Below, piece after piece: positions 1,572 through 64,000 of a stretch of DNA of 64,000 nt. The DNA is from Centroscyllium fabricii. Its lineage: Eukaryota. Within the stretch, counting starts at the first letter, position 1; every line of letters begins with the position of its first letter. Position numbers and translations under genes: made by a program. The DNA lies in NCBI GenBank assembly GCA_051313645.2, contig JBNRSN020000001.1, positions 560,418,001 through 560,482,000 of the forward strand, given 5' to 3'. The notes beneath the pieces were generated by a model. The model was not told the DNA's origin. It saw only the letters and a program-made list of their open reading frames with translations, and made no database searches.

Positions 1572-1849
1572 TGTGGTAAACCTGTGTTATACCACTGTCA
1601 TTGTATCATAATGTACCTGTAAATACCTTGCTGCTAACTCTGTACATATCTGTAAATACCTGATTGCAGGAGCTTGCCCCGGCTGACCCCGCCTCTGACT
1701 CCTCCTCTGGGTCTAGGTATATAGGTGGCTGCTTACCATCCCCCGGTCAGTACTGCCCGGAGCTCAGCCGAGACACGTTCCATTCTTCAGTGAATAAAAG
1801 CCTTTAGTTAAGGTAACTCTTCGTCTTTGGTCTAATTGACGATACGTCA
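1572..1849 (+). mobile_element. Solo LTR, element-E-like Gypsy family
   Basis: TG..CA ends, TATATA, AATAAAAGCC, end TTGACGATACGTCA shared with element E LTRs; flanks GGCAG/GGCAT (5-bp TSD, 1 mismatch). Confidence 0.85.
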
Positions 1850-3382: not shown

Positions 3383-3424
3383 CAGCTCCCCCCAGAATCC
3401 GTCCGGGAGGCATAGTGACAGTGT

Positions 3425-6883: not shown

Positions 6884-6957
6884 GTTTTCTGTTAAAAGTC
6901 TTTGGCTGGTGGTCCCAGATCCTGCGGCAGCTTATCTTCTCTGGAAGTCGTTCCAGT

Positions 6958-6969
6958 TCGGGGTCACCA
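6958..6969 (-). promoter_or_regulatory. Primer-binding site complementary to tRNA-Trp 3' end
   Basis: TGGTGACCCCGA 1 nt after the 5' LTR; matches the 3' end TCGGGGTCACCA of vertebrate tRNA-Trp. Confidence 0.88.
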
Positions 6970-6970
6970 C

Positions 6971-12507: not shown

Positions 12508-12530
12508 CTTCAAAATTTAGCTAATAAAAT

Positions 12531-14051: not shown

Positions 14052-14338
14052 TGTGGTAACCATATGTATGTATAAATTACCACCGTAATATTGGTGCCAA
14101 TATTACCAGTGTACATAGCGGTCGGGTGCATAAGATGTTGCGACACTGTCGTGGGGCCAGGTCAGCCACACCTCTAACTCCTCCCCCAGGTGAGGCCCTT
14201 TATAGGTGAGGACTGACCGGACCCCAGCCATTCTGTACCTGTTGTTCGTTCGGAGTATAGCTCCTATAAGTCAATAAAAGCCTGTAGTTAAGGTCACTAC
14301 TCGTCTTTGACTTTATTGAGTTAATTGACGATACGTCA
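14052..14338 (+). mobile_element. Solo LTR, element-E-like Gypsy family
   Basis: TG..CA, perfect TSD GGGTG, AATAAAAGCC, end TTGACGATACGTCA. Confidence 0.92.
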
Positions 14339-16704: not shown

Positions 16705-16790
16705 AAGAAATGGAGAAGGTAGCAATCTCCCAGCAATGGAGGAAAGAAACCCGAGGTCACAACACAGAAGGCGTGGCTGGATGTGGCACA
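16705..16790 (+). pseudogene. Harbinger Myb/SANT-like gene, 5' piece (interrupted by element C)
   Basis: RKKPEVTTQKAWLDVA, continuing after 31025 towards RKCFNDLTRSG. Confidence 0.5.
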
Positions 16791-17027
16791 AATCAATATG
16801 CCAGTATTTGGTGAAGTGTAAATGAAGGCTTTTATTAGCTAAGAACTAGACCTGGTCTGCGATGAGTCCGCCCGGAATGAGAGTCAGGTGGGCGGAGCAT
16901 CCTCCTTTATACTCATACCCGGAGGCGGGATCAGCTGGTCTAGGTCCTTACAGAAAGGAACAGATTTATTAGCACAAACTATATACAATAATAACACAGT
17001 GTGAACCACACTAAATGGTTCACCACA
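16782..17027 (-). repeat. Element C 3' LTR
   Basis: Matches the reassembled 26098-26289 + 30971-31025. Confidence 0.92.
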
Positions 17028-17134
17028 TTCACCCCTTCCTTAAAAAACAAGTCCCGCGGGGCGAATATCAGCACTGCGTTATCAGTCTTTGAGGAGGTCG
17101 AACAGTCTGAGAAGACCTGCGAAGCAGTGGCGAT

Positions 17135-21083: not shown

Positions 21084-21088
21084 CCTGC

Positions 21089-21307
21089 TGTGGTAATACA
21101 GAACAGCTTCTATCTGCTTACATCACTTCCGGGGACCTATGAACGTTTGTATGATGTCACTTCCTGTAACTAGCCCAGTATAAATACTGGGCTACTCACT
21201 ATGATTTAGTAAGAGGCATAGTGAAGACCTCTTTTGTATGTAGCACCTTTATAAGTTGATTAAAGCTTACCTTAAGTTCCTATCATGTAAGTTTCATTCT
21301 TACAACA
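21089..21307 (+). repeat. Element F 5' LTR
   Basis: TG..CA, TATAAATA at 21179, ATTAAA at 21259. Confidence 0.95.
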
Positions 21308-21319
21308 ATTTAATCAACT

Positions 21320-24300
21320 TTGCAAAACCTCTCACTCAACTCGAACTTTTGGACAAAACTCGGAGCTGAGGATCCAGGGAAGCCACCAGCATGGAGAACC
21401 TCCTTAGACCGACTCGTCTCGATTTGGACCCAAACACCCCAGCAGCTGATAAAGTCTGGAAACACTCACGCTTTTGAAAATTTTCTTGTATATTGTGAAG
21501 CTGATGATGACATGAAGCTCAAGTTACTAATCAACTATGTCACCCCAAGGGTATATGAATGTGTGGATCATTGGACTAATTTTGATGAGGCAATTCGGAC
21601 ACTTCAGAGACTATATACTAAGACACCTAATGAGGTCTATGCTAGACATCTACTAGCTACAGCCCGACAAGGGCCAGAGGTATCAATTGATAAATTCCTT
21701 CATGAGCTTCGCAGGCTTAGCATGAATTGTAACTTTCAGGCGGCTTCAGCTGAGCTGTACCGTGAAGAGATGATTCGTGATGCCTTCATCTGCGGGCTTG
21801 CCTCCCCATTTATTCGCCAGCGTCTACTCGAAAGTAAGACACTGGAACTACAAAAAGCTTATGACTTGGCTTGTTCTCTGGATTTGGCAAAAAGAAATGC
21901 AGACCTTTATGAAGTACCTAGACCTCGAACTGCTGCTTTAACCACAACCAGACAATTTAAGCGGCCACAGGTGAACTCTATTAGGGAGGACTTTTATCCT
22001 GATGATCAATCTGAGGACTTCACTGATGAAGAAGATAATGACCCCACTCTGGCAGCCTCTTGGCGATCTAAGAAATGCTTCTTTTGTGGTGATGAGTTTC
22101 ATCCTAGGAAATTCTGCCCTGCTCGCAATGCGATTTGCAGTCATTGTGACAAAAAGGGTCATTTTGCGAAGGTTTGCCTATCACGAGCCTCTACGAGGGC
22201 TTATCAAGCTCAGTCCTATCGAACTGCCCCAATTAGGGCCTATCAAGATATTCCGGCTAAATCTTATCATGCTTCCTCTCGGGGTTTTTCCCGAAGAAGC
22301 ACACCTAGAGTTTCTGCCACTCTTTGTGCAACAACATCAATTACAGCTGCTTGTCCTCCAAATCTATTCTATGCTGCTGTGAAGGCATCAATTGCTGGAC
22401 ATACTTTAGATGCCTTAATTGACTCTGGCAGCTCTGATAGTTTTATTAGGGAACAGGTTGTTACAAAGTTAAAGCTACATGTTTTCCCATCCAACCAGGC
22501 AATTGCGATGGCTCAGTCGTCGCTCAACACCAGAACCTCCGGCTTTTGTATTGTTGAAATATCACTTAATGGCCACAGGTATCCCTCTACCCGGCTTTCG
22601 GTGCTCAAGGACCTGTGTAGTGACCTTCTCTTAGGGCTGGACTTCCAAAAGCAGCATAAGACGCTCACTATTGAGTTCGGCGGATCCAAACCCGGACTCA
22701 CTGTTTCTAATATCCTGCCTCAATTACCGTTCTGTGCGTTGTCAGCGGCTTCGCTGGATGAACCCTCACTATTTACCAGTATTCCTCCTCGATGCAAGCC
22801 AATTATAACAAAATCACGACGTTTCACTCAGGAAGACCAGTCCTTTATTGCGACTGAAATTTCTCGGCTTTTGGCAGAGGATATCATCGAGCCTTGTTCA
22901 TCGCCATGGCGGGCCCAAGTTGTTATTGTTAAAAATCCTCTGCAGCCTCACAAGAAATGGCTGTGCATTGACTATTCACAGACCATCAATCAATATACGG
23001 ACTTGGACGCCTACCCATTGCCGCGCATAGATGATATGGTTAATAAATTGGCTGAGTACACGGTGTTCTCAACGTATGATCTGAAAAGCGCCTATCATCA
23101 AGTACCTTTGAAAGTCTCAGACAAGCAGTATACGGCCTTTGAGGCCAATGGACGGCTGTACCAGTTCCGTCGCCTCCCGTTTGGGGTCACTAATGGAGTG
23201 GCTGTCTTCCAGCGGGCAATGGATGACTTCGTCAAGCAGGAAAACTTAAAGGATACTTTTCCTTATCTAGATAATATTACTGTTGCAGGTCATGATCAAC
23301 AGGAACACGACGCCAATCTCCAACGATTTCAGGATGCCCTCCAGCACCGTAATTTAACATTGAATGCATCTAAATCTATTGAGTCGCAACCAACCATAAA
23401 CATCCTTGGCTATTGTGTGGGCAATGGCATAATTAAACCGGACCCTGAAAGGCTTCGTCCGCTCCAAGAGCTCCCGCCACCTAAGAATCCAGCCTCCTTG
23501 CGTCGGGCCCTCGGCCTCTTTGCGTATTATGCTAAGTGGATTCCTAACTTCTCGGACAGAATCCAACCCCTACTGAAGGCCGGAACATTTCCATTAGACA
23601 CAGCGGCTGTTACAGCCTTTAATCTTCTAAAACAACTGTTGGAGAAAGCGGCCCTTCACTCTGTTGATGAGAATCTGCCCTTCGTCGTTGAATGTGATGC
23701 CTCAGAAGTGGCGATCTCGGCTACTCTGAATCAAGAAGGTCGTCCGGTGGCATTTTTATCCAGGACCTTTCAAGGTGCCGAAATACATTATCCTCCAGTG
23801 GAGAAAGAAGCTACAGCCATTATCGAGGCAGTACGGAAATGGAACCATTTCCTAGCTCGGCAACACTTTACGTTAATAACAGACCAGCGATCGGTCGCTT
23901 TTATGCTTGATAATCGGAAACGAACCAAAATTAAAAATAATAAGATCCAGCTTTGGCGGATGGAATTGGCCTCTTTCGGTTACACCATCCACTACCGACC
24001 TGGCAAGGACAATGTGGCCCCGGATACCCTCACACGAGCATTCTGCTCCGCCGTGTCACCCTCTACTCTCGTGGAAGTCCATGATGGATTGTGTCATCCT
24101 GGCGTTACCCGCATGTTACACTTCGTGCGATCACGGAATCTCCCTTTTTCTACCGGGGATGTCAAGAAGATGTGCTCGGACTGCAGAGTCTGTGCAGAAT
24201 TAAAGCCTCAGTTTTTCCGCCCCTCGGGTGGTACGCTCATACATGCGACCCAGCCGATGCAACGGCTTAGCATTGATTTTAAGGGCCCGTTGCCCTCTTC

Positions 24301-25369: not shown

Positions 25370-25387
25370 TCTTTTGGGAGGGAAGAA

Positions 25388-25606
25388 TGTGGTAATACAG
25401 AACAGCTTCTATCTGCTTACATCACTTCCGGGGACCTATGAACTTTTGTATGATGTCACTTCCTGTAACTAGCCCAGTATAAATACTGGGCTACTCACTA
25501 TGATTTAGTAAGAGGCATAGTGAAGACCTCTTTTGTATGTAGCACCTTTATAAGTTGATTAAAGCTTACCTTAAGTTCCTATCGTGTAAGTTTCATTCTT
25601 ACAACA
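25388..25606 (+). repeat. Element F 3' LTR
   Basis: Near-identical to 21089-21307. Confidence 0.95.
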
Positions 25607-26073
25607 CCTGCTACGTAGGCATCGCGGATGAGAAGGTCCATGTGCTCCTGGGCGTCAACAGGTGCACATTCGCAGCGCAGAGCGAGAGCCTGAAGAGCCT
25701 CCAGGTACTCCTCATTCGACTCACCAGGCTGTTGCCTCCGCGTGGCGAGTAGATGCCGAGCGTAGACGGCGTTGACTGGCTGGAGGTATCGAGCCCTCAG
25801 CAGCTCCAATGCTGCATCGTAGTCAGTGGCATTCTTGATGATCGAATATACCCTGCCACTGACGCAGGAGATGAGGACCCATCTCCTGTGCGCATCGCTG
25901 ACTCTGGCCACCACCAGAAACGATTCGAAGCAGCTCAGCCAGTGCTCAAAATCGTTCGAAGCGTTCGGTGTCTGGGGGTTGAGGTCGAGAGTCTTCGGTT
26001 TAAGGATCGATGTCCAGTTATCTGATGCAGCTGGCTGGTGGCTCTGTTCTTGCTCATCCCCGTGCTGGCTCAT
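25607..26073 (-). pseudogene. Element C gag N-terminal part
   Basis: MSQHG..LKPKTLDLNP..YARHLLATRRQQPGES..DAYVAG; continues at 21083 (IRSAPARTRLLEQ). Confidence 0.9.
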
Positions 26074-26289
26074 TGTAAAAATCTTAGCTAATAAAATTGA
26101 TGCGCAAATCAATTACGCCAGTCTTTGGTGAAGTGTAAACGAAGGCTTTTATTAACTAAGAACTAGACCTGGTCCACGATGAGTCCGCCCGGAATGAGAG
26201 TCAGGTGGGCGGAGCATCCTCCTTTATACTCATACCCGGAGGCGGGGTCAGCTGGTCCAGGTCCTTACAGAAAGGAACAGATTTATTAG

Positions 26290-26564
26290 TGTGACCTACA
26301 ATAACGTCCTCGGAGGCGAGTAGTTAGTTAGAAACAATCAGGCTTTTATTCACTACACTGGAACATGCACCAGGTAGTCGACTGTCCCCAGGAATGGCTC
26401 GGGGGATGGGAGCAGTCACTTATATACCTCCTCCTGGGAGGGAGGAGTTATGGGCGGAGCCAACCTGGGCATGTCCCAGTCATCACGACATCATACAGGT
26501 ATTTACAGGGTTACATCTCAATACATAACAATAACTATATTACAGTGATAACCAGTTTATCACA
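26290..26564 (-). repeat. Element D 3' LTR
   Basis: Near-identical to 30691-30965. Confidence 0.95.
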
Positions 26565-26676
26565 TTCACCCCTTCTTTAAAACGAAAGTCCGGCGGGGTG
26601 AATGGCCAGTAAATGGAAAAGGGAAGGAATTTTTATTTTATTTTATTTTATAACGAGAAAAGTTTTTCTTCTTTAG

Positions 26677-29600
26677 CTATAGATTAAGTCTTGCTGGCGG
26701 TTTTGATGTCCGCGTCGATCTTCGCACCGCTGGAGGTGTCGGTGGTCGAGGCGTGGCTGGCCGTGTCGGTTGCTGTAGCGGTGTCGGTGCCAGTTGATGA
26801 GCAGTAATGCTACTTCTGGGTGGTGGTGGTGCCCTTATTCTGACAGCAGGGGGCGCATTCTCTCCTTCGTCCTCTGACTCTAGGGGGCGCGCGCTGTGGA
26901 TCCAAGCTTGGGGCCAGGTCGTGCTGCTCGCAGGTGCCATGCGGACGTACTGGGGTACTGGGCCCACGTGTTGGGGAGCGTACTTTGGCTTCGGCGGCAT
27001 GGGGAGCGTCACAGGAAGTTTTGGGTGCGCGGGCTGCTGGGCGGGGCTTCTTGGAGGCGCGGGCTGCTGGGCGGGGCTGGGTTTGGGGACTCCTGCTGGG
27101 GCTAGATCCTTTATGGGCACGGTGTCCTCCCTCCCATCGGGGTACGCTATGTACGCGTACTGGGGATTGGCGTGCAGGAGGTGGACCCGTTCGACTAGGG
27201 GATCTGCCTTGTGTCCCCTCACATGCTTCCGAAGCAGGACCGGTCCCGGGGATAGTAGCCACGATGGTAGCGAGGTCCCGGAAGCTGACTTCCTGGGGAA
27301 GGCAAAAAGTCTTTCGTGAGGGGTGGCATTAGTGGCAGTACACAGGAGGGACCGGATAGAGTGGAGCGCTTCAGGGAGGACGTCCTGCCATCGGGTGACT
27401 GGGAGGCCTTTAGACCGTAGGGCTAGCTGGATGGCCTTCCAGACAGTGGCGTTCTCCCTCTCTACCTGCCCGTTCCCCCGGGGGTTGTAGCTGGTAGTCC
27501 TGCTAGTCGCGATGCCTTTCGCTAGCAGAAACTGACGCAGCTCGTCACTCATAAAAGAGGCCCCCCGGTCACTATGGATATAGTTGGGGTACCCGAACAG
27601 GGAAAAGATGCTATTAAGGGCTTTGATGACGGTGGCGGAGGTCATGTCCTGGCAGGGAATGGCGAAGGGGAAGCGGGAGTACTCATCTATTACGTTAAGG
27701 AAGTACACATTCCTATTAGATGAGGGAAGGGGCCCTTTAAAATCGACGCTGAGTCGTTCAAAGGGGCGAGTGGCCTTGATCAAGTGCGCCCGGTCTGGCC
27801 GGTAGAAGTGCGGCTTGCACTCCGCGCAGACCTGGCAGTTGCTGGTCAGGGTCTTGACCTCCTCGATGGAGTAGGGGAGGTTGCGGGACTTCACAAAGTG
27901 AACCAACCTGGTGACCCCCGGGTGGCAGAGGTCATTGTGAAGGGTTTGGAGACGGTCAGCCTGTGCGCTGGCACAGGTACCGCGGGATAGGGCATCTGGG
28001 GGTTCGTTAAATATCCCGGGCCGGTACAAAATATCATAATTGAACGCAGAGAGTTCAATTCTCCACCTTAATATCTTGTCGTTCTTTATTTTACCCCGTT
28101 CCTTGTTGTTAAACATGAATGCGACTGATCGTTGGTCAGTCAGTAGGGTAAAACGTTTGCCGGCCAGGTAGTGCTTCCAATGCCGCACTGCTTTAACAAT
28201 GGCCTGGGCCTCCTTCTCGACTGAGGAGTGACGGGTTTCGGGGCCTTGGAGGGTACGTGAAAAGAAGGCCACGGGTCTGCCCGCCTGGTTAAGGGTGGCG
28301 GCCAGGGCAAAGTCAGATGCATCACTTTCCACTTGGAATGGGACGGACTCATCAACAGCGTGCATCGTGGCTTTGGCAATATCGTTTTTGATTCTGCAGA
28401 ATGCCGAGTTGGCTTCTGCAGAAAGGGGAAAAGAGGTAGATTTAAGTAGTGGGCGAGCTTTGTCCGCATAGTTAGGGACCCACTGGGCATAGTAGACGAA
28501 AAATCCCAAACACCGTTTAAGGGCTTTGGGGGAGTGGGGGAGGGGAAGCTCCATGAGGGGGCGCATGCGGTCCGGGTCTGGACCGATGACTCCATTCTCC
28601 ACCACGCTGCCGAGGATGGCCAGACGGCCGGTGCTAAATACACATTTCTCTTTATTGTACGTTAGGTTCAGAGTTTTGGCCGTGTGGAGGAATTTTTGGA
28701 GGTTGGCATCATGGTCCTGCTGATCATGGCCGCAGATGGTCACATTATCGAGGTACGGGAAAGTGGCTCGCAGCCCGTACCGATCAACCATTCGGTCCAT
28801 CTCCCTTTGGAAGACCGAGACCCCATTCGTGACGCCAAACGGAACCCTAAGGAAGTGGTAGAGGCGACTGTCAGCCTCGAAGGCTGTATAAAGACGGTCC
28901 TCTGGGCGGATGGGAAGCTGGTGATAAGCCGATTTGAGATCAATCGTGGAGTACACTTTAAATTGGACGATTTGGTTCACCATGTCCGCTATCCGGGGGA
29001 GGGGGTAGGCATCTAATTGGGTGAAGCGGTTTATGGTCTAACTATAGTCCACCACCATCCTGTTCTTCTCCCCGGTTTTTACTACTACTACCTGCGCTCT
29101 CCAGGGGCTATTACTGGCCTCTATGACCCCCTCTTTTAGGAGGCGCTGTACCTCTGATTTTATAAATGCCATGTCCCCAGCACTGTAGCGCCTACTTTTG
29201 GTGGCGACGGGCTTGCAGTCTGGGGTGAGATTGGCGAAGAGGGATGGAGGGGCAACCTTAAGGGTCGAGAGGCCACAGGTAGTGTGCTGGGGGTACCGCC
29301 TTGGGCTGCGGTTTCTGACCGTGAGTGAGGGAAGGGGTCCGCCGAATGCCATCGTCACGCTCTGGAGGTGGCACTGGAAATCCAGTCCCAGGAGTAGGGG
29401 GGTGCAGAGCTGCGGCAGCACGTAAAAGCTAAAATCGTTAAACCTTGCCCCCTGTACATTAAGTGTTACAACGCAGCGCCCGGTGACGTCAGCAGATTCC
29501 GACTTAGACGCCATAGATATTCTCTGGCGCGCAGGGATTACTCTAAGGGAGAGGCGCTTTACAGTATTTTGATTTATGAAACTTACTGTGCTCCCGCTGT

Positions 29601-30669
29601 CGAACAGGCACACCACCTCTTTACCGTTGACTTCCACCGGCATCATAGATTTCTCCAGCGGTTGAGTCTTCCTCTGGTCTATGGTCATCGATGCTAACAC
29701 AGGGTCCTCCAAGTCGTCTTGATCCGGAGAGTAGTCCTCCGAGGCCGCTCCCCAAGATGGCTGCCGCCATGTGGTGTACTGTGGAGGGGGAGGCTGAGTC
29801 CAAGATGGCCACTGTTGCTGCTGCTGCTGCCACAAGGGCTGCTGAGTGGGGGATGGGTGAGCCCAATATGGCTGTTCCCATGTTCCAGACGCGGCGCTGC
29901 CCAGTTTTGATTTTATGCTAGTGCTTTTACAGACCTTCGCATAATGTCCTTTCTTGTCACATTTCGAGCAGATCGCTTCTCTAGCAGGGCCGCTGCGTCT
30001 TGAGTGCTGAGACTGCCCACAAAAGTAGCATTTGGCTGCCGTTTTCGCGTGGGCGGCTGTGATTAGTTCTTCTGCCGGTCGTTGAGCCGGCACTGTCCAA
30101 GATTGCGGGGCTGGGCCTGTATAGCTGCTGGAGTATGAAGATAAGTCCGTTGAGGCCCTATCCAGCGCGTGCCCCAAGTCTGTAGTCACCTGTAAGTCCA
30201 GGCCGTTCTGCTCCAGCAGTCTCTGCCTGACATAGTCTGATTTTAAGCCTGTTACGTAAGCGTCTCTGATGAGGCTATCTACATGGAGCGGGGCCGTTAG
30301 CGCCCTGCAGTCACAGTCCCGCGACAGTATTCTGAGGGCTCTTAGGAACTCCACACTTGACTCACCGGTTTGTTGCTTTCTGGTGGCGAGTATATGTCTT
30401 GCGTGGACTACATTCGGTGCCCGATTGTACTCCGTCTCGAGAATCCTGATGGCCTCCTGGAACGATGAGGCGTCCACTATCATGGAGTACACCTGAGGGC
30501 CCACCCGGGCGTTGAGGAGTCGCCGTTTGTGCTCTTCGGTCACTATGACCGCTGCATTGGCTCTGAGGTACCCTTCGAGCACACTGCGCCAATGTGTGAA
30601 GGCGTTCGATGCTCCTGGTGATCGGGGATCCAATTCGAAAACTGCTGGCTTGAGCATAGTAGTATCCAT
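26677..30669 (-). pseudogene. Element D gag-pol with a single in-frame stop
   Basis: ORFs 29038-30669 and 26677-28983 share a frame; DYS*TIN (Gln codon to TAG at 29038-29040); all domains present, YLDN. Confidence 0.92.
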
Positions 30670-30690
30670 TTTTACAGTAGTGAATAAAAT

Positions 30691-30965
30691 TGTGACCTAC
30701 AATAACGTCCTCGGAGGCGAGTAGTTAGTTAGAAACAATCAGGCTTTTATTCACTACACTGGAACATGCACCAGGTAGTCGACTGTCCCCAGGAATGGCT
30801 CGGGGGATGGGAGCAGTCACTTATATACCTCCTCCTGGGAGGGAGGAGTTATGGGCGGAGCCAACCTGGGCATGTCCCAGTCATCACAACATCATACAGG
30901 TATTTACAGGGTTACATCTCAATCCATAACAATAACTATATTACAGTGATAACCAGTTTATCACA
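30691..30965 (-). repeat. Element D 5' LTR
   Basis: TG..CA; TATATAA and AATAAA on the minus strand. Confidence 0.95.
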
Positions 30966-31025
30966 ATTAGCACAAACTATATACAATAATAACACAGTGT
31001 GAACCACACTAAATGGTTCACCACA

Positions 31026-32760: not shown

Positions 32761-32835
32761 TTATTACTTCGCACCAGATTCCCGTGTTCCCCATTCTTGA
32801 AAGATGAGTGTCAACTCTGCTTTTCATTTGTTTGA

Positions 32836-34115
32836 ACATAAGAACATAAGAAGTAGGAGCAGGAGTAGGCCACACGGCCCCTCGGGCCTGCTCCGCCATT
32901 CAATAGAATCATGGCTGATCTGAACTTAGACTCACGTCCACTTCCCTGCCTGCTCCCCGTAACCCCTTATTCCCTTATCAGCCAGGAAACTATCTATCTC
33001 CATTTTAAAATTATTTAATGTTGCAGCTTCCACAGCTCTCTGAGGTAGCACATTCCATAGATTTACTACCCTCTGAGTGAAGAAGATTCTCCTCATCTCA
33101 GTTTTGAAAGGGTAGCCCCTTATTCTAAGATTATGCCCCCTCGTTCTAGTCTCACCCATCAGTGGAAACCTCCTCACCGCACCCACCCGATCAAGCCCCC
33201 TCACAATCTTATATGTTTTGATAAGATCGCCTCTCATTCTTCTGAATTCCAATGAGTAGAGGCCCAACCTGCTCAACCTTTCCTCATAAGTCAACCCCCT
33301 CATCTCGGAATCAACCGAGTGAAACTTCTCTGAACTGCCTCGAGAGCAAGTATATCTTTTCTTAAATATGAAAACCAAAACTGTACGCAGTATTCCAGGT
33401 GTGGCCTCACCAGTACTCTGTATAACTGCAGCAAGACCACCCCACTTCTACATTCCATCCCCCTTGCAATAAAAGCCAAGATTCTATTAGCCTTCCTGAT
33501 CACCTGCTGTACCTGCATACTAACCTTCTGTGTTTCATGCACCAGGACCCCCAGATCCCTTTGTACTGTAGCACTTTGCAATTTCTCTCCATTTAGATAA
33601 TAATTTGCACTTTGATTTTTTCTGCCAAAGTGCATAACCTCACACTTTCCAACATTATATTCAATCTGCCAAATTTTTGCCCACTCACTTAGCCTGTCTA
33701 TGTCCCTTTGCAGGTTTTTTATGTCCTCCTCACTCACTGCTTTCCCTCCCATCTTTGTATCATCGGCAAACTTTGATATGTTGTACTCGGTCCCTTCCTC
33801 CAAATCGTTAATATAGATTGTAAAGAGTTGGGGTCCCAGCACTGACCCCTGCGGAACACCACTAGTCACTGATTGCCATCCCAAGAATAAACCATTTATC
33901 CCAACTATCTGTTTTCTGTTAGATAGCCAATCTTCCACCCATGCCAGTATATTACCCCCAATTCTGTGATTTTTCATCTTGTGCAGTAATCTTTTGTGTG
34001 GCACCTTGTCAAATGCCTTTTGGATGTCCAAATACACCACATCCACTGTTTCCCTTTTAGCCACCCTGTTTGTTATGTCCTCATATGAGCAAATTTGTTA
34101 AACATGACTTCCCTG
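32836..34115 (-). mobile_element. 5'-truncated CR1 LINE (RT + tail)
   Basis: YLDIQKAFDKVPH, GVPQGSVLGP, KFADDTK; (CATAAGAA)n tail; frameshift near 33305. Confidence 0.93.
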
Positions 34116-37087: not shown

Positions 37088-37177
37088 CAGTCCAAAGATG
37101 TGCGGGTTGGGTTGATTGGCCATGATAAATCGACCCTTAGTGTTAGGGGGATTGAATATGTGGGGTTATGGGGATAG
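37088..37177 (+). mobile_element. Truncated V-SINE, part 1 (split by a CR1)
   Basis: CAGTCCAAAGATGTGCGGGTT..ATATGTGGGGTTATGGGGATAG; resumes at 40088. Confidence 0.8.
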
Positions 37178-40087
37178 AAACATAGAAACATAGAAGATAG
37201 GAGCAGGAGTAGGCCATTCAGCCCTTCGAGCCTGCTCCGCCATTTAACGAGATCATGGCTGATCTTACAAGTTCTGTACCCCGTCCCTGCCTTCTCCCCA
37301 TATCTCTTAATCCCTTTAGCCTGAAGAAATATATCCAGTTCCCTCTTGAATATATTCAATGAACCGGCCTCCACTGTCCTCTGTGGCAAAGAATTCCACA
37401 GGTTCACCACTCTCTGTGTGAAGAATTTCCTCCTCATCTCAGTCCCAAAAGGCTTACCCCTTATCCTTAGACTATGCCCCCTGGTTCTTGACTCCCCCTC
37501 CATCGGAAACATCCTTTCTGCATCTAACCTGTCCAGGCCTGACAGAATTTTATAAGTCTCGATGAGATCCCCTCTTAATCTTCTAAACTCCAGCGAGTAT
37601 AAGCCCAGACTACACAATCTCTCCTCATAAGTCATTCCTGCCATCCCAGGTATCAGCCTGGTGAATCATCGCTGCACTCCCTCCATGGCAAGAACATCCT
37701 TCCTCAGATGAGGCGACCAAAACTGCACACAATACTCAAGGTGTGGCCTCACCAAGGCCCTGTACAGCTGCAGCAAGACATCCCTATTCCTATACTCAAA
37801 CCCTCTTGATATAAAGGCCAACATACCTTTTGCCTTTTTAACCGCATGCTGCACCTGCATGCTCACCTTCAGTGACTGGTGCACTAGACTAGAACACCCA
37901 GATCTCTTTGCACTTCCCCATCTCCCAATCTATTGCCGTTCAAATAATAATCTGCCTTTCTGTTTTTGCTACCAAAGTGGATAACCTCACATTTATCCAC
38001 ATTATAGTGCATTTGCCATGTATTCGCCCAATCCCCCAATCTGTCCAAATCGTACTGGAGCTTCCTGACATCCTCCTCAGAGCATACTCCCCCTCCAAGC
38101 TTAGTGTCGTCTGCGAATTTGGAGATGTTATATCCAATTCCCTCATCCAGGTCATTAATATATATTGTGAACAGCTGGGGTCCCAGTACAGACCCCTGCG
38201 GTACCCCACTAGTCACTGCCCGCCAATCAGAAAACGACCCGTTTATCCTAACTCTCTGTTTTCTATCTGCCAACCAGTTCTCTATCCACGTCAATACCCT
38301 GCCCCCAATCCTATGAGCCTTAATTTTGCATGCCAATCTTCTATGAGGGACCTTGTCAAAGGCTTTCTGGAAGTCCAGGTAAACCACATCTACTGGCTCT
38401 CCCCTATCTATTTTATCAGTTACATCCTCAAAGAATTCCAATTGATTAGTCAAGCACGATTTACCTTTTGTAAATCCATGTTGACTCTGTCCAATCCCAT
38501 CACTATTTGTCAAGTGATCTGCTATTACGTCCTTAATAATTGACTCTAGCATTTTGCCCACAACCGATGTAAGTCAATACCCTGCCCCCAATCCTATGAG
38601 CCTTAATTTTGCATGCCAATCTCCTATGAGGGACCTTGTCAAAGGCTTTCTGGAAGTCCAGATAAACCACATCTACTGGCTCTCCCCTATCTATTTTATC
38701 AGTTACATCCTCAAAGAATTCCAATAGATTAGTCAAGCACGATTTACCATTTGTAAATCCATGTTGACTCTGTCCGATCCCATCACTATTTGTCAAGTGA
38801 TCTGCTATTACGTCCTTAATAATGGACTCTAGCATTTTGCCCACAACCAATGTAAGGCTTACCGGTCTGTAATTCCCCGCTTTCTCTCTACCCCCCTTTT
38901 TGAATAGTGGGGTAACATTAGCCACCCTCCAATCCATGGGCACTGTTCCAGAGTCTATCGAGTTCTGGAAAATGATCCTCAAAGCATCTGCTATCTCCAG
39001 GGCCACTTCCTTAAGCACCCTAGGATGCAGATTATCAGGCCCTGGGGATTTGTCGGCCTTTAATCCCTTCAACTTCCCGGACACCATATCCTTAGAAATA
39101 TTGATTTCTTTCAGTTCCTCCCTTGCATTAGTCCCTATGTTTCCTGACATCTCTGGGAGGTTATTTGTGTCCTCCTTTGTGAAGACAGAACCAAAATATG
39201 AATTTAATTGGTCTGCCATTTCCTTGTTCCCCATTATATATTCTCCTGATTCGGACTGCAAGGGCCCAACTCTGGATTTCACCAGTCTCTTCCTTTTAAT
39301 GTATCTATAAAAGGTTTTGCAGTCAGTTTTTATGTTTGCCGCAAGCTTTCTTTCGTAATCTATTTCCCCCCTCTTAATTAATCCCTTTGTCCTCCTTTGC
39401 TGTATCCTGAATTGTTCCCAATCCTCAGGTTTGGTGCTTTTTTGGCCAGTTGATATGTCCTTTCTTTGGATTTTATGTTATCCCTAATTTCCCTTGTTAT
39501 CCACGGTTGAGTCACCTTTTTTGGTTTATTTTTATGCCAAACTGGTATAAACAAGCTCTGCGCTTCTTCCATTCGATCTTTGAATGCCTGCCATTGTTGA
39601 TCCACCGTCAGCCCCCTGAGCGACACCCCCCAATCAATTGTACACAACTCTCGTCTCATACCATCATAGTTCCCTTTTCTTAAATTCAGGACCTTAGTCT
39701 CTGAGTCAATTTCTTCGCTCTCCATCTTGAGTGAGAATTCGATCATATTATGATCGCTCCGACCCAATGGGCCTCGTACAACAAGATTGCATTAATCCTT
39801 TCTCATTGCACAGTACCCAGTCTAAGATGGCCTGATCCCGAGTTGGTTCCTTGACATATTGGTCCAGGAAACCGTCTTGTATACACTCCAGAAATTCCTC
39901 CTCCATCGTGTTGTTGCTAATCTGGCTAGTCCAATCTATATGTAAATTAAAGTCACCCATGATGACAGCTGTGCCCTTATTGCACGCTTCTTTAATTTCC
40001 CTTTTTATGCCTTCCCCAACCTCCATATTACTATTTGGCGGTCTATATACCACTCCCACCAACATTTTCCGCCCCTTGCTATTCCTC
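37178..40087 (-). mobile_element. CR1 LINE (endonuclease C-terminus through RT and tail) with an internal tandem duplication
   Basis: VYRPP, MGDFN, SDHN, KSPGPD, NYRPVSLT, KAFDKVPH, FADDTK; (CATAGAAA)n tail. Confidence 0.93.
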
Positions 40088-41291: not shown

Positions 41292-41418
41292 TATAATTAG
41301 TAAATTCAATGAAATAAGGAAAACATTAAAGCCAGTGGATAGAAGAGGTTGTTCAACAACTCTTCAGTAGGGGACAAGCGGAACACCTTTATAGATATAA
41401 TGTTGAGCATTTAGGATA

Positions 41419-42163
41419 AATAAGAACATAAGAAATAGGAGCAGGAGTAGGCCAATCGGCCCCTCGAGCCTGCTCCGCCATTTAACAAGATCATGGCTGA
41501 TCTGATCCTAACCTCAATTTTATTTTTACTCTCCATCCCGCCCAAACCCATGTGATCACCCGGGAGAGGCGAAAAAACAGATAAAAAACCCAGTGGCCAA
41601 TTTGGGAGAAAAAATCTGGGAAATTCCTCTCCGACCCATCTAGGCGATCGAAAACTGGTCCAGGAGATCACATGGCCGATCTGAACCTAGCCTCACGTCC
41701 ACTTACCTGCCCGCTCACCATAACCCCTAATTCCCTTTACTTCCAGGAAACTGTCTATCTCTGTTTTAAATTTATTCAATGTAGTAGCTTCCACAGCTCT
41801 CTGGGGCAGCAAATTCCACAGCCCCACCACCCTCTGAGTGAAGAAGTTTCTCCTCATCTCAGTTTTGAAATGGCAGCCCCTTATTTTAAGATCATGCCCC
41901 CTAGTCCTAGTTTCACCCACCATTGGGAACATCCTCACCACATCCACCCGATCAAGCCCTCTCACAATCTTATATGTTTCAATAAGATTGCCTCTCATTC
42001 TTCTGAACTCCAATGAGTAGAGGCCCAATCTACTCAACCTCTCGTCATATGTTAGCCCCCTCATCCCCGGAATTAACCTAGTGAACCTTCTTTGCACTGC
42101 CTCGAGAGCAAGTATGTCCTTTCTTAAATATGGACACCAGAACTGCACGCAGTATTCCAGGTG
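41419..42163 (-). mobile_element. CR1 LINE 3' end with extended 3'UTR
   Basis: HLEYCVQFWCP..GKWT; near-identical to 56735-57480. Confidence 0.93.
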
Positions 42164-42313
42164 ATACATATTTAAATTCAATTCTCTCAGACTAAATAAA
42201 CGTGATGGATTATCAAACAATTTAAAAGTGAGATAAAAAGGAAAAGAAATGGCATGTCCAAATCCTTCAGGAAAGGGATGGAATTTACTGCGATGAATGC
42301 AAGAAAATGCAGA

Positions 42314-42465
42314 AACAACAACAACTACTTGTATTTATATAGCACCTTTAACATATTAAAATGTCCCAAGGTGCGTCACAGGAGTATGATAAGACAAATA
42401 ATTTGGCGACAAGCCACATAAGGGGAAATTAGGGCAGCCGATCAAAAGCTTGGTCAAAGAGGTAG
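42314..42465 (-). mobile_element. L2-type LINE 3' tail
   Basis: (AAC)n CTTGTATTTATATAGCACCTTT; matches 51225-51370. Confidence 0.75.
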
Positions 42466-56542: not shown

Positions 56543-56735
56543 TTATGGTCTGAAATTGTTGAACTCGATGTTGTGTACAGTAGGCTGTAACGTGCCTAAT
56601 CGAAAGATGAGGTGTTGTTCCTCGAGTTTACGTTGAGCTTTGTTGGAACAACATGAGAGGCCGGGGAACAAGAGGTCAGAGTGGGAGTGGAGTGGAGAAT
56701 TAAAGTGACTGGCAACTGGAAGCTTGGGGTCACAC
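56543..56735 (-). mobile_element. Penelope-like element GIY-YIG C-terminal fragment
   Basis: PVASHFNS..HS..DL..RKLEEQHLIFRLGTLQP..NIEF. Confidence 0.82.
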
Positions 56736-57783
56736 ATAAGAACATAAGAAATAGGATCAGGAGTCGGCCAATCGGCCCCTCAAGCCTGCTCCGCCATTCA
56801 ACAAGATCATGGCTGATCTGATCCTAACCTCAATTTTATTTTTACTCTCCATCCCGCCCAAACCCATGTGATCACCCGGGAGAGGCGAAAAACCAGATGA
56901 AAAACCCAGTGGCCAATTTGGGAGAAAAAATCTGGGAAATTCCTCTCCGACCCATCTAGGCGATCGAAAACTGGTCCAGCAGATCACATGGCCGATCTGA
57001 ACCTAGCCTCACATCCACTTACCTGCCCACTCACCATAACCCCTAATTCCCTTTACTTCCAGGAAACTGTCTATCTCTGTTTTAAATTTATTCAATGTAG
57101 TAGCTTCCACAGCTCTCTGGGGCAGCAAATTCCACAGCCCCACCACCCTCTGAGTGAGGAAGTTTCTCCTCATCTCAGTTTTGAAATGGCAGCCCCTTAT
57201 TTTAAGATCATGCCCCCTAGTCCTAGTTTCACCCACCATTGGGAACATCCTCACCGCATCCACCCGATCAAGCCCTCTCACAATCTTATATGTTTCAATA
57301 AGATCACCTCTCATTCTTCTGAACTCCAATGAGTATAGGCTCAATCTACTCAGCCTCTCATCATATGTTAGCCCCCTCATCCCCGGAATTAGCCTTGTGA
57401 ACCTTCTTTGCTCTGCCTCGAGAGCAAGTATGTCCTTTCTTAAATATGGATACCAGAACTGCACGCAGTATTCCAGGTGTGGTCTCACCAATAACCTGTA
57501 CAACTGCAGCAAGGCCTCCCTGCTTTTATACTCCATCCCCTTAGCAATAAAAACCAACATTCTGTTGGCCTTCCTGACCACCTACTGCACCTGCATATTA
57601 ACTTTTTGTGTTTCCTGCACCAGGACCCCCAGATCCCTTTGCACTGAAGTACTTTCCAGTTTCTTTCCATTTAGATAATAACTCGCTCTATTATTTTTCC
57701 TGCCAAAGTGCATAACTTCACACGTTCCAGTATTATACTCCATCTGCCAAATCTCTGCCCATTCACTTAGCCTATCTATGTGC
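56735..57783 (-). mobile_element. CR1 LINE 3' part (split by element E)
   Basis: ORF 57009-57581; extended 3'UTR; resumes at 62641. Confidence 0.93.
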
Positions 57784-58065
57784 TGTGGTAATCATGATTA
57801 CCAGTGTATATAGTTGAGCACACTACAGACCAGCATGTATAGTGACTGGGTGCATTGTATATAGTTTTGTATAACAACACTGTCGCGAGGTCAGGTCAGC
57901 CACACCTCTAACTCCTCCCCTCAGCTGAGCGCCTTTTTGGTGGGGTCTGACCTGCCTCCATTCATTCTGTGCTCAATGTTCAACTGGAGAGTAGCTCCAT
58001 TGTAAAGTGATTAAAAGCCTCTAGTTAAGGCAACTACTCGTCTTTGTCTTATTGACGATACGTCA
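57784..58065 (+). repeat. Element E 5' LTR
   Basis: TG..CA; ATTAAA at 58010. Confidence 0.95.
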
Positions 58066-58090
58066 ATTTTAATCACTTTAAATTTTCGAA

Positions 58091-61000
58091 ATGGAGAGTG
58101 GCGCTGTGAAACCCGAAAAGCTGGATATTAGTCCACAGGATCCAGACGTCGCCAATACGTTTGAACATTGATTCAGCCTTGTTGAGGCTTACATGGCGGC
58201 CGCCAAGGCGACGACCGACGGGAACAAACTCCACGTTCTCTCGTCCAGGATCTCCAGCCGGGTGTACTCCTTCATCCGCGATGCAACAACGTACAAAGAG
58301 GCCGTGGAGAAACTGAAGGCATGCTACGTGCGCCCGGTCCACTCGGTCTATGCCAGACACGTGCTGGCGACCAGACAACAACGGCTCGGTGAGTCTAATG
58401 AACAGTATTTGTTGGCGCTTCAAGCCCTCGCCCGGGCCTGTGACTGCCAGCCACGAATGGCGCAGGAGGAGACGAATCTCGTTCGAGACGCCTACATGAC
58501 GGGGATCAGGTCCAGCCAGGCCCGCCAGCGGTTGCTGGAAAAAGAGACTTTATCGCTGGAGGAGGCAATCTCCATCTCTAACGCGGTGGATGGAGCATGC
58601 CGCAGGCTAGAGACGTATAGCGGCCAAGGCCCACATGCCACCCTCGATTCCTGGGCGGCCCCACGACAGGTCGAGACCCCCACAATGGCAGCGGCAGCTG
58701 CGAAGACGCCGGCGGACAGAAATTGCTACTTCTGCGGCCAGGGACTGCATCCACGAGCGAAATGCCCTGCGAGGACCGCGACCTGCGAGAAATGCAGTAA
58801 AAAGGGACACTATGCCAGGGTCTGCAAATCGGCCGCAGCGCCCAGCTCCAGACACAACAGCACGGCCTGCGAGAGCTCCAACGCCATCCCATGGCCTCAG
58901 GTAAGCTGCTGTTGCAGCGCGACCCAGCAGCGGTCCGGGGGTAGATTACACACCACGCCAAAGACGGCCGCGGCTGGCCATGGGCGACCCCCCAATGCCG
59001 GCATCTCGCCCAGCGCTGCCCGCTGCGTGCGAATCACGGGCGCCGCCAACTCGGCCACCGCGGTCTGCCGCGTGCGAACCACGGGCACCGCCACCGCCAC
59101 CGCGGCCTGCCGCGTGCGAATCATGGGCGCCGCCATCTTGTCTTCAGCGGCCAGCCATGTGCGACCCCCCGGCGCCGCCATCTTGTCTTCAGCGGCCAGC
59201 CATGTGCGACCCCCCCCGGCGCCGCCATCTTGTCTTCAACGGCCAGACATGTGCGACCCCCCGGCGCCGCCATCTTGTCCACCGCAGTCGGCCGCGTGCA
59301 AATCACGGGCGCCGCCATCTTGTGCACGGCCCCAGCTAGCGGAGGGCCCCCACACACGCACACACACTTCGGCCTTAGCCACGGTCGACCAGGCTAGGCC
59401 GCATACCCTATCAAATTCCAGGATGCCGATTAAAGTTAATGGCCATATCACCAACTGCCTGTTCGACACCGGAAGCACAGAGAGCTTCATTCACCCCGAC
59501 ACAGTGCGGCGCTACGGACTGCAGACTCTGCCCACGCACTACCAAATCTCCCTTGCTTCAAAGTCCCACACGGTGGACGTCACTGGCTACTGCTCCGTCA
59601 CGCTCACAGTCAGGGACATCGTGTACCGTAATTTTAAACTGTACATACTCCAGCAGTTGTGCGCCCCAGTCTTACTGGGACTGGATTTCCAGTGCCACCT
59701 GAAGAGCGTGACAATGGAGTTCGGCGGGACCCTGCCCCCCCTCGCCGTCAGTAGCCGGGACAATCCCTTCCTAAAGTGGAGCCCGACTTGCGGCCTATCC
59801 ACCCTGAAAGTCGCCCCCCCCTCGCTGTTCACCAACATCGACCCCAACTGCAAACCCATTGCTATCAAGAGTCGGCGTTACAGTGCGGGGGATCGGGCAT
59901 TTATCAGGTCGGAGGTCGGGCGTATGCTGCAGGAGGGGATAATTGAAGCCAGCACCAGCCCCTGGTGGGCCCAGGTCATAGTGGTTAAGACTGGCGAGAA
60001 ACTGCGGATGATGATCGACTACAGCCAGACCATTAACCGCTACACCGGGCTCGACGCCTACCCCCTTCCCCGCATCTCGGAAATGGTTAACCAGATCACC
60101 CAGTACAAGGTGTTCTCCACAATCGACCTTAAGTCGGCGTATCACCAAGTCCCGATCCGGAAAGCCGACCACCCGTACACCGCCTTCGAGGCGAACGGTC
60201 GGCTCTACCACTTCCTCCGGGTCCCCTTCGGCGTGACCAACGGAGTGTCGGTATTCCAAAGGGAGATGGACCGCATGGTTGACCAGAATGGGTTGCAGGT
60301 CACTTTCCCCTACCTGGACAACGTGACCATCTGCGGCCATGACCAGCAGGACCACGATGCCAAACTGGCCAAATTCCTCCACACGGCGAAATGGCTCGAT
60401 CTCACGTACAATAAAGACAAGTGCGTCTTTAGTACAGATCGGCTCGCCATCCTCGGATATGTAGTGGAAAACGGGGTCCTTGGCCCCGACCCACAGCTTA
60501 TGCGCCCCTTACAGGAACTGCCCTTACCTCACAACCCCAAAGCCCTGAGGAGATGTCTGGGATTTTTCTCCTATTACGCGCAATGGGGTCTCCAGTTTGC
60601 GGATAAGGCCAGACCGCTCCTCAAGGCTGCCCTCTTTCCCCTCTCGGTAGAAGCCCAAACGGCGTTCGCCCAGATCAAGGAAGATATTATCAAGGCAACC
60701 ATGGACGCCGTTGATGATTCCATCCCTTTCCAGGTGGAGAGTGACGCTTCGGACTTTGCCCTTGCCGCCACCCTGAATCAGGCAGGCAGGCCCGCAGCGT
60801 GTTTCTCCTGCACCCTACAGGGACCCGAAACTCGCCACTCTGCAGTGGAAAAGGAGGCCCAGGCCATCGTGGAGGCCGTGCGCTACTGGCGTCATTACCT
60901 GGCCAGTAAGCGTTTTACCCTGCTCACCAACCAACGGTCGGTCGCGTTTATGTTTAACAATAAACAAAAGGGTAAAATCAAGAATGATAAGATCCTGCGG

Positions 61001-62257
61001 TGGCGGATCGAGCTCTCGACTTACGAGTACGACATTCTTTACCGACCAGGCAAACTCAATGAACACCCGGACGCACTGTCCAGGGGAACGGGCGCCAGTG
61101 CCCAGCTGGACCGGCTGAAGGAACTCCACGATCGCCTCTGTCACCCGGGTATCACCAGACTTGCCCATTTCTTTAAATCTCGTAGCCTCCCCTACTCCAT
61201 CACGGAGATCAAGGCTATGACCCGAGAGTGCCCTGTTTGCGCCGAGTGCAAACCCCAATTTTACAGGCCAGACACGGCACACCTCATTAAGGCCACCCGC
61301 CCCTTTGAACGTCTAAGCGTGGACTTCAAAGGCCCCCACCCCTCCACCGACCGCAACTCATACTTCCTCACGGTCGTAGACGAGTTCTCCCGCTTCCCCT
61401 TTGCCTTCCTCTGCCCAGATATGACGAGCGCAATGGTGATCAGACACTTCACCACGCTGTTCGCCATTTTCGGTCTCCCCAGCTACATCCATAGCGACTG
61501 GGGGTCGTCGTTCATGAGCGACGAACTGCGTCAGTTTCTGCTTCAGAAAGGAGTTGCCTCAAGCAGAACGACCAGTTATAACCCCCGGGGGAACGGCCAG
61601 GTAGAAAGGGAGAACGGGATCATCTGGAAGGCGGTCAGCCTGGCCCTGAAGTCCAGAGGCCTTCCAGTGTCCCGTTGGCAGGCAGTCCTCCCAGACGCGC
61701 TCCACTCCATCCGCTCTCTGCTGTGTACGGCTACCAACGCCACACCTCACGACTTGCTGTTTTCATTCCCCAGGAAGTCGACTTCGGGGACAGCACTCCC
61801 ACCGTGGCTCACGATGCCGGGGCCGGTCTTACCTAGAAAACATGTCCGCGGCCATAAGACCGACACCCTGGTGGAAAATGTGCAGCTGCTGCACGCCAAC
61901 CTGAGGTACACCTACATGCAGTTCCCGGACGGGCGCCAGGACACAGTTTCCATCAGGGACCTAGCGCCCGCCAGGAGCACCACAGCAGAGCCCCTGGTCG
62001 AGCCTCAGCCCGACCAGCAACCGCCTACCGACCACTGGCCTTCACACCAACCACAACCCAGATCCTGGCTTAGGCACACGCACACACTAGGGCCCCCGAC
62101 ACTAGCAGCTGAGGACCGAGAACCAGATGCCACACCACAGACACAGCTGCCGGAGGACCCGGCCCCGCCACCACAACCAGCACCAGCGCCGCTACCAGAA
62201 CCACAGCGGTCCTCAAGGCAGACACGACCGCCGGAGAGACTCATTGTGAACTGTTGA
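58091..62257 (+). pseudogene. Element E gag-pol (open from 58193; probable true ATG 58091 with TGA at 58169-58171)
   Basis: MESGAVKPEKLDISP..FEH* (Trp in relatives); zinc knuckles, LFDTGS, YLDN, RNase H, HHCC + DDE. Confidence 0.9.
59125..59325 (+). repeat. ~45-bp tandem repeat in the gag-protease linker of E
   Basis: GGCGCCGCCATCTTGT five times. Confidence 0.9.
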
Positions 62258-62358
62258 GCTGGACTCATACAATAATATATAAAACATTTTTTCTTTCCTT
62301 GCATTAACAGGTTCTGTCCATTCACCCTGCCGGACTCAATCTTCAAAGAAGGGGTGAA

Positions 62359-62640
62359 TGTGGTAATCATGATTACCAGTGTATATAGTTGAGCACACTA
62401 CAGACCAGCGTGTATAGTGGCTGGGTGCATTGTATATAGTTTTGTATAACGACACTGTCGTGAGGTCAGGTCAGCCACACCTCTAACTCCTCCCCTCAGG
62501 TGAGCGCCTTTTTGGTGAGGTCTGACCTGCCCCCATTCATTCTGTACTCAATGTTCGACTGGAGAGTAGCTCCATTGTAAAGTGATTAAAAGCCTCTAGT
62601 TAAGGTAACTACTCGTCTTTGTCTTATTGACGATACGTCA
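62359..62640 (+). repeat. Element E 3' LTR
   Basis: Matches 57784-58065. Confidence 0.95.
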
Positions 62641-64000
62641 TGTGCTTTTGCAGGTTTTTAATGTCCTCCTCACTCATCACACTCCCTCCCATCCTTGTGT
62701 CATCCGCAAACTTTGATATGTTGCACTTGGTCCTTGCGGAACACCACTAGTCAATGACTGCCAGTCTGAGAACGAACCATTTATCCCAACTCTCTGTTTT
62801 CTGTTAGAAAGCCAATCCTCCACCCACGCCAGAATATTACCCCCAACCCTGTGATTTATTATCTTGAGTAATAATCTTTTGTGTGGCACCTTGTCAAATG
62901 CCTTTTGGAAGTCTAAATACACTACCTCCACTGGTTCCCCTTTATCCACCCTATATGTTATCTCCTCAAAGAACTCTAGCAAATTTGTCAAACATGACTT
63001 CCCCTTTGTAAAACGATGCTGACTTTGTCCTATTAAATTATGTTTATCCAAATGCCCTGTAACTGTTTCCTTAATAATGGATTCTAACATTTTGCCAACC
63101 AGAGATGTTAGGCTAACTGGTCTATAATTTCCAGCCTTCTGTCTATTACCCTGTTTAAATAAAGGCGTTACATTAGCAGTTTTCCAATCTGCCGGAACCT
63201 TTGCCGAGTCCAGAGAGTTTTGAAAAATTATTACCAATGCATCCACAATCCCTACCGCCACTTCCCTCAAGACCCTAGGATGTAAGCCATCAGGTCCAGG
63301 GGATTTATCCTCCTTAAGTCCCATAATGTTCCCGAGTACCACTTCCTTAGTGACTTTAATTGTAATTCGCTCCTCCCCCCCTAGAGCCACCTGTTTATCC
63401 AATGTTGGGATATTTTGAGTGTCCTCTACTGTAAAGACTGATACAAAATATTTGTTCAGTGCTTTTGCCATCTCTATGTCCCCTACCATTAATTTCCCGG
63501 TCTCATCCTCTAAAGGACCAACATTTACTTTAGCCACCCTTTTTCTTTTTATGTAACTATAGAAACTCTTGCTATCTGTTTTTATATTTGTTGCTAATTT
63601 ACTTTCATAATCTATCTTCCCTTTCTTAATCAATCTTTTTGTTATTTTATGCTGACTTTTAAAAGCTTCCCGATCTTCTATCTTCCCACTAGATTTTGCT
63701 ACCTTTTTTAACCTTGTTTTTAGTCGGATACTCTCCTTTATTACTTTACTTAGCCACGGATAGCTGTTTTTTCTTTTACACCCTTTTTTCCTCAGTGGAA
63801 TAAATTTTTCTTGAAAGTTGTAAAATAACTCCTTGAATACACACCACTGATCATGTACCGTCTTACCCTTTAATCTGTTTTCCCAGTCCACCTTAATCAG
63901 TTCCGCTCTCATACCATCATAGTCTCCTTTATTTAAGCTCAGTATGCTTGTTTGAGATCCAACCCTCTCACCCTCTAATTGAATTTGGAATTCAACCATG
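62641..64000 (-). mobile_element. CR1 LINE ORF2 middle part (runs off window edge)
   Basis: KSPGPDGLHPRVL, NYRPVSLTS, YLDFQKAFDKVPH, GVPQG; deletion near 62733. Confidence 0.93.

Follow-up and report, generated by a model that had tools for sequence, protein, structure and literature searches.

Reverse transcription of LTR elements is by default primed by a tRNA. Release of the self-primer of Tf1 has been attributed to a cut by RNase H, and in HIV-1, which is primed by a tRNA, the 5' poly(A) hairpin buries the hexamer in its stem. In the accessible parts of two sources, self-priming is reported as shown experimentally only in the fission yeast Tf elements, and as predicted for chromovirus relatives and for one plant Copia lineage (PMC6317226, PMC4600332). 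Tf1 and Tf2 of Schizosaccharomyces pombe and Tj1 of S. japonicus have no tRNA site; instead, their primer-binding site (PBS) pairs with RNA of their own 5' LTR, extra helices occur in the enclosed loop and cleavage is needed to free the 3'-OH, according to the available sections of PMC4600332, PMC5341516 and bioRxiv 2022.12.06.519325, the last of which describes a three-duplex 'pretzel' for Tf1. The predicted cases, recognized by PBS-LTR complementarity, are the Tcn1 chromoviruses and the TAR (Houba, Osr-1) Copia elements of plants (PMC6317226, in the part available).

The stretch of Centroscyllium fabricii DNA analyzed here (64,000 nucleotides of contig JBNRSN020000001.1; hereafter the window) contains five elements, B to F, with TG...CA LTRs, target-site duplications, polypurine tracts and the PR-RT-RH-IN domain order of Ty3/Gypsy elements, together with element A, a Gypsy element of a different lineage ( Table 1 ). 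The RT of Ty3 is the best relative with a solved structure for a window RT (E 1e-47). Self-comparison of the window gave 96-99% identity within the LTR pairs of A, B, D, E and F, and showed element C to be interrupted by F and D. These three form a nest (window 16781-31025), F lying within the gag of C and D within its 5' LTR, with 5-bp target-site duplications flanking both D and F. The gag-pol frame of E carries one in-frame stop near its start in this copy, and 45-nt tandem repeats between its zinc knuckles and protease (58949-59344), similar repeats being found in C (20243-20496).

Table 1. Positions in the window of the elements and of the features discussed in the text; functional labels are putative.
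Feature	Position	Strand	Remarks
Element E 5' LTR	57784..58065	+	TG...CA, target-site duplication TGTGC; 96.5% identity to 62359-62640
E decayed TATA-box position	57932..57940	+	matches TATA of sister variants, -80 to -86 from primer end; putative function
E initiator-like CATTC	57958..57967	+	predicted transcript start ~53-57 nt above primer end
E short hairpin immediately 5' of paired segment	57985..57999	+	single-sequence fold
E putative self-primer segment	58003..58016	+	overlaps ATTAAA hexamer; 14/14 complementary to PBS
E helix P2	58017..58031	+	begins directly after predicted cut; mean 4.3 bp vs 3.1 bp in shuffles; modest
E U5-end helix P3 and 1-nt spacer A (58066)	58052..58066	+	mean 5.3 bp vs 3.9 bp in shuffles
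E PBS, non-tRNA-type	58067..58080	+	pairs with 58003..58016
E gag-pol	58091..62257	+	two CCHC, protease, RT (YLDN), RNase H and integrase; chromodomain and env absent
E polypurine tract and 3' LTR (62359-62640)	62345..62640	+	
B self-primer segment	12587..12601	-	14/15 with PBS; 5' LTR 12531-12832, 3' LTR 8190-8490
B PBS	12515..12529	-	
C self-primer segment	26147..26161	-	14/15, 15th is G-U; 3' LTR copy matches fully
C 5' LTR, split by D	30966-31025 + 26098-26289		gag split by F; 3' LTR about 16781-17027
C PBS	26082..26096	-	
D self-primer segment	30745..30757	-	13/13; 5' LTR 30691-30965, 3' LTR 26290-26564
D TATA; initiator-like motif	30821-30827; 30792-30798	-	
D PBS	30677..30689	-	
F self-primer segment	21253..21264	+	12/12; 5' LTR 21089-21307, 3' LTR 25388-25606; TATA 21179-21185
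F PBS	21309..21320	+	
Element A (control), TGG-starting PBS	6952..6969	-	different Gypsy lineage, DUF7041 gag, YLDD; LTR has ATTAAA followed by GC
Clade solo LTR	14052..14338	+	target-site duplication GGGTG
Clade solo LTR	1572..1849	+	

A preliminary description of the window had claimed that B to F, in place of the TGG-starting PBS present in A, carry an antisense copy of a segment of their own LTR. All five pairs are present as described, with matches between 12/12 and 14/15 ( Table 1 ); none of the five PBS starts with TGG, and each begins one nucleotide (an A) behind the LTR-terminal CA. The loops, put there at about 43-56 nt, measure 44-57 nt with the spacer counted, and the claim that pairing is kept while the paired sequence differs is borne out by covariation across copies.

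For the wider survey, gag starts were located by tblastn, independently of the pairing, in 40 unselected 10-kb stretches of the genome, 80 metagenome loci, 50 pattern-selected loci and the window. This gave 129 gag sites, of which 122 reach the N-terminus and 119 have sufficient upstream DNA, and each of the latter was scored for pairing over 13 nt anchored one nucleotide past a CA (threshold score at least 11.5). The test was passed by 5/5 sites in the window, 23/28 in the unselected genome, 28/38 on metagenome contigs and 45/48 among the pattern-selected loci; of 300 random places, 12 also reached the threshold, possibly including true elements. The 18 failures (5 of the 28 unselected and 10 of the 38 metagenome sites among them) include decayed copies and weak hits that possibly come from other lineages, and those metagenome relatives that have complete LTR pairs show the same layout. 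Paired length is 12-15 nt, starting one nucleotide past the 5' LTR, and the partner segment in the LTR lies 36-66 nt upstream. Pairing between PBS and own LTR is a trait of the clade.

The 101 passing sites contain 48 distinct PBS 13-mers, which pair at 12.67 of 13 positions with their own LTR and at 8.50 with that of another variant, the own-LTR figure being inflated because the variants were pre-selected by the score of at least 11.5 (101/119 sites). Over positions 6-13 only, the corresponding values are 7.77/8 and 4.31/8. The genome-wide counts are unaffected by this selection; they represent related copies, in which few events are counted many times, and are not independent. A looser junction pattern was counted 243,057 times genome-wide, compared with 162 occurrences of its control. 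At position 8 of the duplex, with the flanks fixed, T-A was found in 45,461 copies and G-C in 29,557, and the mismatches T-C and G-A in 297 each, so that the pair is kept in 75,018 copies and broken in 594 (0.8% of 75,612). Among the matches listed, both paired types are present in several subfamilies with different loop sequences. Within families, 26 of 30 E-family loci have an identical paired segment, one has a double change that keeps the pair and three have a single mismatch; 14/14 pairing was found in 21 of 30 C-family loci.

Relatedness of the copies within the genome, which inflates these counts, is also what one would expect if the match were a non-functional inverted duplication descended from one ancestor. 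Double-sided changes at most of positions 4-13 across the PBS variants, in lineages whose RTs are 49-61% identical to that of F, make this extremely unlikely. The default mode of LTR elements, priming by a host tRNA, tRNA half or small RNA with the LTR match being secondary, is also very improbable: a TGG start occurs in 0/48 PBS variants, the 48 different PBS sequences each follow their own LTR, and the pair tested at position 8 is rarely broken. The longest match of a PBS to the interior of a host tRNA was 4-6 nt, in a sample consisting of Cys and Lys tRNAs only (30 genes), a restriction that leaves some room for a host primer; in this same sample of Cys and Lys genes the tRNA of element A was not confirmed either.

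Because PBS and LTR segment covary and the position of the pairing is fixed, the most likely explanation is that the B-F clade primes reverse transcription in cis with its own RNA, to which we assign a probability of roughly 0.8. Self-priming had already been proposed in the preliminary description, and these two lines of evidence support it well. The transcript would start about 30 nt below the TATA box and some 52 nt before the paired segment ends, and folding of the leader would pair the LTR segment with the PBS, with a further helix, P2, adjoining. By analogy with Tf1, the element's RNase H would then cut at the 3' edge of the duplex, after AAA and before R-C-C, and the 3'-OH so freed would lie on the PBS, from where RT could copy the spacer, U5 and the remainder of R. 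Strand transfer could rely on the short interval from the cut to the poly(A) site. Plus-strand synthesis would then copy the primer into the PBS anew, so that primer and PBS would stay in step. RNase H and RT domains are present in the clade elements by Pfam scan, their activity being predicted. An Rfam scan of positions 57750-58200 gave no family at E <= 1, and hence no catalogued ribozyme in that interval.

Element RNA might instead furnish the primer in trans or from the other end, either as an early-terminated 5' LTR RNA or as the 3' LTR copy close to the poly(A) tail, trimmed to the edge of the duplex. Both LTRs contain the same segment, 30 of 31 own-genome variants have the poly(A) hexamer in it, and covariation does not separate cis from trans. 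Such a source is nonetheless improbable given the narrow range of loop lengths, the metagenome variants that pair without hexamer overlap (10/17) and a favourable fold in cis, the mean pair probability of the duplex exceeding 0.5 in 46 of 48 single-sequence folds.

As regards the remainder of the leader proposed for cis priming, helix P2, after the predicted cut, has a mean of 4.1-4.3 bp compared with 2.9-3.1 in shuffles, and helix P3 at the end of U5 4.5-5.3 bp compared with 3.7-3.9, which is modest support in both cases. Pairing of the loop with sequence downstream of the PBS was at shuffle level (6.8 vs 6.6; 6.4 vs 6.1). The full 'pretzel' of Tf1 is therefore unsupported, counterparts being found for two of its three duplexes only.

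The TATA box had been placed about 65 nt above the primer segment in B, D and F, and in D it lies about 64 nt above the 5' end of that segment. Measured from the 3' end of the paired segment the distance is 82-86 nt in B, C, D and F, the motif being decayed in E. A TATA-like motif at -80 to -86 from the primer end was found in 26 of 31 own-genome variants, including unrelated LTR sequences, and in none of the 17 metagenome variants. In B and D the TATA box is followed, after about 31 nt, by an initiator-like CATTC. This spacing and the initiator predict a leader of about 52 nt, the last 12-15 nt of which are paired; given self-priming, a long primer of about this size has slightly better than even odds. 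A short, Tf1-like primer of 11-14 nt, with chances somewhat below even, would draw on other features of the alignment: pairing decays beyond 13-14 nt (29 of 48 variants are paired at position 14 and 20 at position 15) and an A-G is conserved at -11/-10 (40/48 and 42/48 variants, respectively), both of which would suit a transcript start at the edge of the duplex and argue against the long primer, as does the lack of the TATA-like motif in all 17 metagenome variants.

A 21-24-nt inverted repeat was also observed, in which U3 sequence above the TATA box pairs with the stretch immediately 5' of the primer. It occurs in the 3' LTRs of D (26290-26564) and B (8190-8490), and at three further loci (L178, L223 and L252). 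This structure can form only in a transcript of the 3' LTR and may help to distinguish the two LTRs.

The relation of the paired segment to the poly(A) signal differs between data sets. AATAAA or ATTAAA lies within it in 30 of 31 own-genome variants but in 7 of 17 metagenome variants; the other 10 pair without a hexamer in the segment, three of them carrying one in the loop. Pairing and its position are constant, and the overlap with the hexamer is variable. Hiding of the 5' poly(A) signal, put forward earlier as a possible purpose of the duplex, does not hold as a general one, and since pairing persists without the hexamer an anti-poly(A) role would be secondary. In this genome, where the primer overlaps the hexamer, some damping of 5' polyadenylation may be a by-product of the duplex. 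It is quite improbable that the duplex serves solely to hide the signal, priming being left to something else. The hexamer frequencies in this genome and the presence of the PBS arm solely at the 5' end, by which only the 5' signal would be hidden, are what occlusion would predict, but besides the hexamer-free variants the arm always begins one nucleotide after the terminal CA, which occlusion does not need, and no alternative primer site is visible. The hexamer is buried in HIV-1 likewise; in the B-F clade the partner strand is the PBS and the overlap is not universal.

The paired segment had further been reported to be always followed by GC, the resulting AAA-GC junction being shared with solo LTRs. 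The junction is indeed present in three further LTRs, two of them solo LTRs flanked by target-site duplications and the third, at 34781, solo-like, but it is not specific to the mechanism, as it is also found in the LTRs of the tRNA-type element A (positions 7033 and 3200). It was thus ruled out as a specific cleavage signature, and marks a poly(A) context instead of self-priming. Element A itself (window 3137-7215; DUF7041 gag, TGG-type PBS) has an insertion-free 246-bp LTR pair with AGTGATTAAA followed by GC. The shared context hints that an ordinary poly(A)-signal region was recruited as self-primer.

Compared with the Tf1/sushi group, the B-F clade likewise has a PBS complementary to its own 5' LTR, but it differs in the lack of a chromodomain, in its separate RT branch and in an RT that is mostly YxDN. 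The primer of Tf1 is 11 nt long, whereas TATA spacing predicts about 52 nt for the B-F clade. In the latter, 12-15 nt are paired, usually over the hexamer, across a loop of 36-66 nt, and the TATA box lies 80-86 nt above the primer end, whereas in a sushi-like comparator from the same genome the primer is 10-11 nt long, the loop spans about 155 nt and a TATA-like motif precedes the primer start by about 30 nt, which fits a Tf1-type transcript start. The contrast with Tf1 drawn in the preliminary description holds, by sequence, for the families of this genome (26/31 with TATA at -80 to -86). Sushi-like elements with a self-primer of their own were observed at two loci (L323 and L325), so that two putatively self-priming lineages occur in one host. 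As to Tcn1 and TAR, these are plant lineages, one chromoviral and one Copia, whereas the B-F clade consists of non-chromovirus Gypsy elements of animals.

The chromodomain was already said to be missing from these elements, and a Pfam scan detected neither a chromodomain nor SH3_Tf2-1 in nine window ORFs, including those of the full-length E and F; SH3_Tf2-1 was found elsewhere in the same genome. An RT tree was built from a subset of the available RTs, comprising those of the window elements, of six homologs with names and of selected loci, together with three SH3_Tf2-1 elements, two A-like elements and two other Gypsy RTs. In this tree, which is unrooted and has few outgroups and no named references, the clade is split from all SH3_Tf2-1, A-like and other Gypsy RTs by a branch of 1.03 (SH-aLRT 99.7), and the catshark protein groups with B and D. 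Because they lack a chromodomain and their RT is separate from that of the sushi-like elements, the B-F elements are not placed in Tf1/sushi; they form a widespread non-chromovirus Ty3/Gypsy group that would work like Tf1/sushi yet is set apart from it, and an independent origin of their self-priming is likely on the present tree.

Of 8,000 proteins scored, 1,076 passed the homolog search, and the named ones belong to a nematode, a shrimp, a copepod, a tunicate, a mussel and a catshark. Among viral contigs, 30 matches to the junction pattern yielded no relatives of the clade. The usual active-site motif of RT is YxDD. In 120 homologs (P0004-P0123) the motif was YxDN or FxDN in 99 and xxDD in 19, and could not be located in 2; YLDD is present in four metagenome relatives that branch deeply. 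The RNase H motif TDQ occurs in 116 of the 120, and two CCHC arrays are present in 79 of 120, partial proteins included; GPV-type motifs prevail. In the window, the YxDN departure was observed in the RTs of B, D, E and F (e.g. 21314-25369). The literature searched yielded nothing on YLDN or YXDN in connection with gypsy elements.

The name Selgy, suggested earlier for a possible self-primer group, does not apply: it denotes a Selaginella-specific clade of plant non-chromoviruses in the part of PMC6317226 available, and the named homologs here are from animals. A 'self-primer' group was not found in the accessible part of PMC2836005, and the motifs of the clade were not found in the searchable supplements of PMC6238403, PMC6317226 and PMC2774666. 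Barthez was rejected, with elements of 7.3-8.8 kb (PMC11117352, in the part available) compared with about 4.5 kb here. Cigr-1 is described in the available supplement of PMC2774666 as having two CCHC arrays, no canonical GPY/F, no chromodomain and no env. The clade studied here shares this marker set, and its homologs include a tunicate and a mussel, Cigr-1 being an element of Ciona intestinalis that also occurs in molluscs; the comparison is by markers only, most of which are shared by the Osvaldo and Mag clades and are hence not unique. Cigr-1 has a single ORF of about 1,200 aa. Membership of the clade in Cigr-1 is thus a lead from markers only.

The abundance of the clade was estimated from the 40 unselected 10-kb stretches (L171-L190 and L241-L260), in which sequence similar to B-F makes up 26.3% of 400 kb, or 24.9% without four stretches adjoining the window, in a small sample with a wide spread. 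The same stretches contain 31 gag sites. By this estimate the clade fills roughly a quarter of the 7.2-Gb genome, and may be a main cause of its size.

A description of self-priming in a non-chromovirus animal clade was not found in the literature searched, whose coverage is partial, so that an earlier description is possible. Self-priming is a known mechanism, and a separate, abundant animal lineage outside the chromoviruses would represent a new variant of it. If the reading is correct, priming without a tRNA evolved on at least two occasions and can be highly successful. The natural variants, hundreds of thousands in number, may then inform on what RNase H needs in order to cut an RNA duplex, and the clade also suits the question of how a poly(A) signal becomes a primer. 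Leaving tRNA priming might free an element from silencing by tRNA fragments, which could be studied here, and the YxDN active site is another peculiarity open to experiment. A fuller scenario is put forward tentatively, and is on the whole doubtful: self-priming would have arisen independently in animals, with a capped, structured leader of about 52 nt cut behind the hexamer, a single duplex that both primes and silences the 5' poly(A) signal, and a YxDN RT, and the clade, freed of the tRNA and of tRNA-fragment silencing, would have grown to about a quarter of a 7.2-Gb vertebrate genome.

Other repeats were also observed in the window. Positions 14594-14976 hold a tandem array whose period is about 49 nt. 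Many LINE fragments with common 3' ends, presumably CR1 as judged from a tail motif, are present at 32833-34113, 37177-39477, 41415-42334, 56731-57781 and 62640-63999. A LINE RT hit was obtained at 62680-63999, and element E is inserted within one of the LINE fragments.
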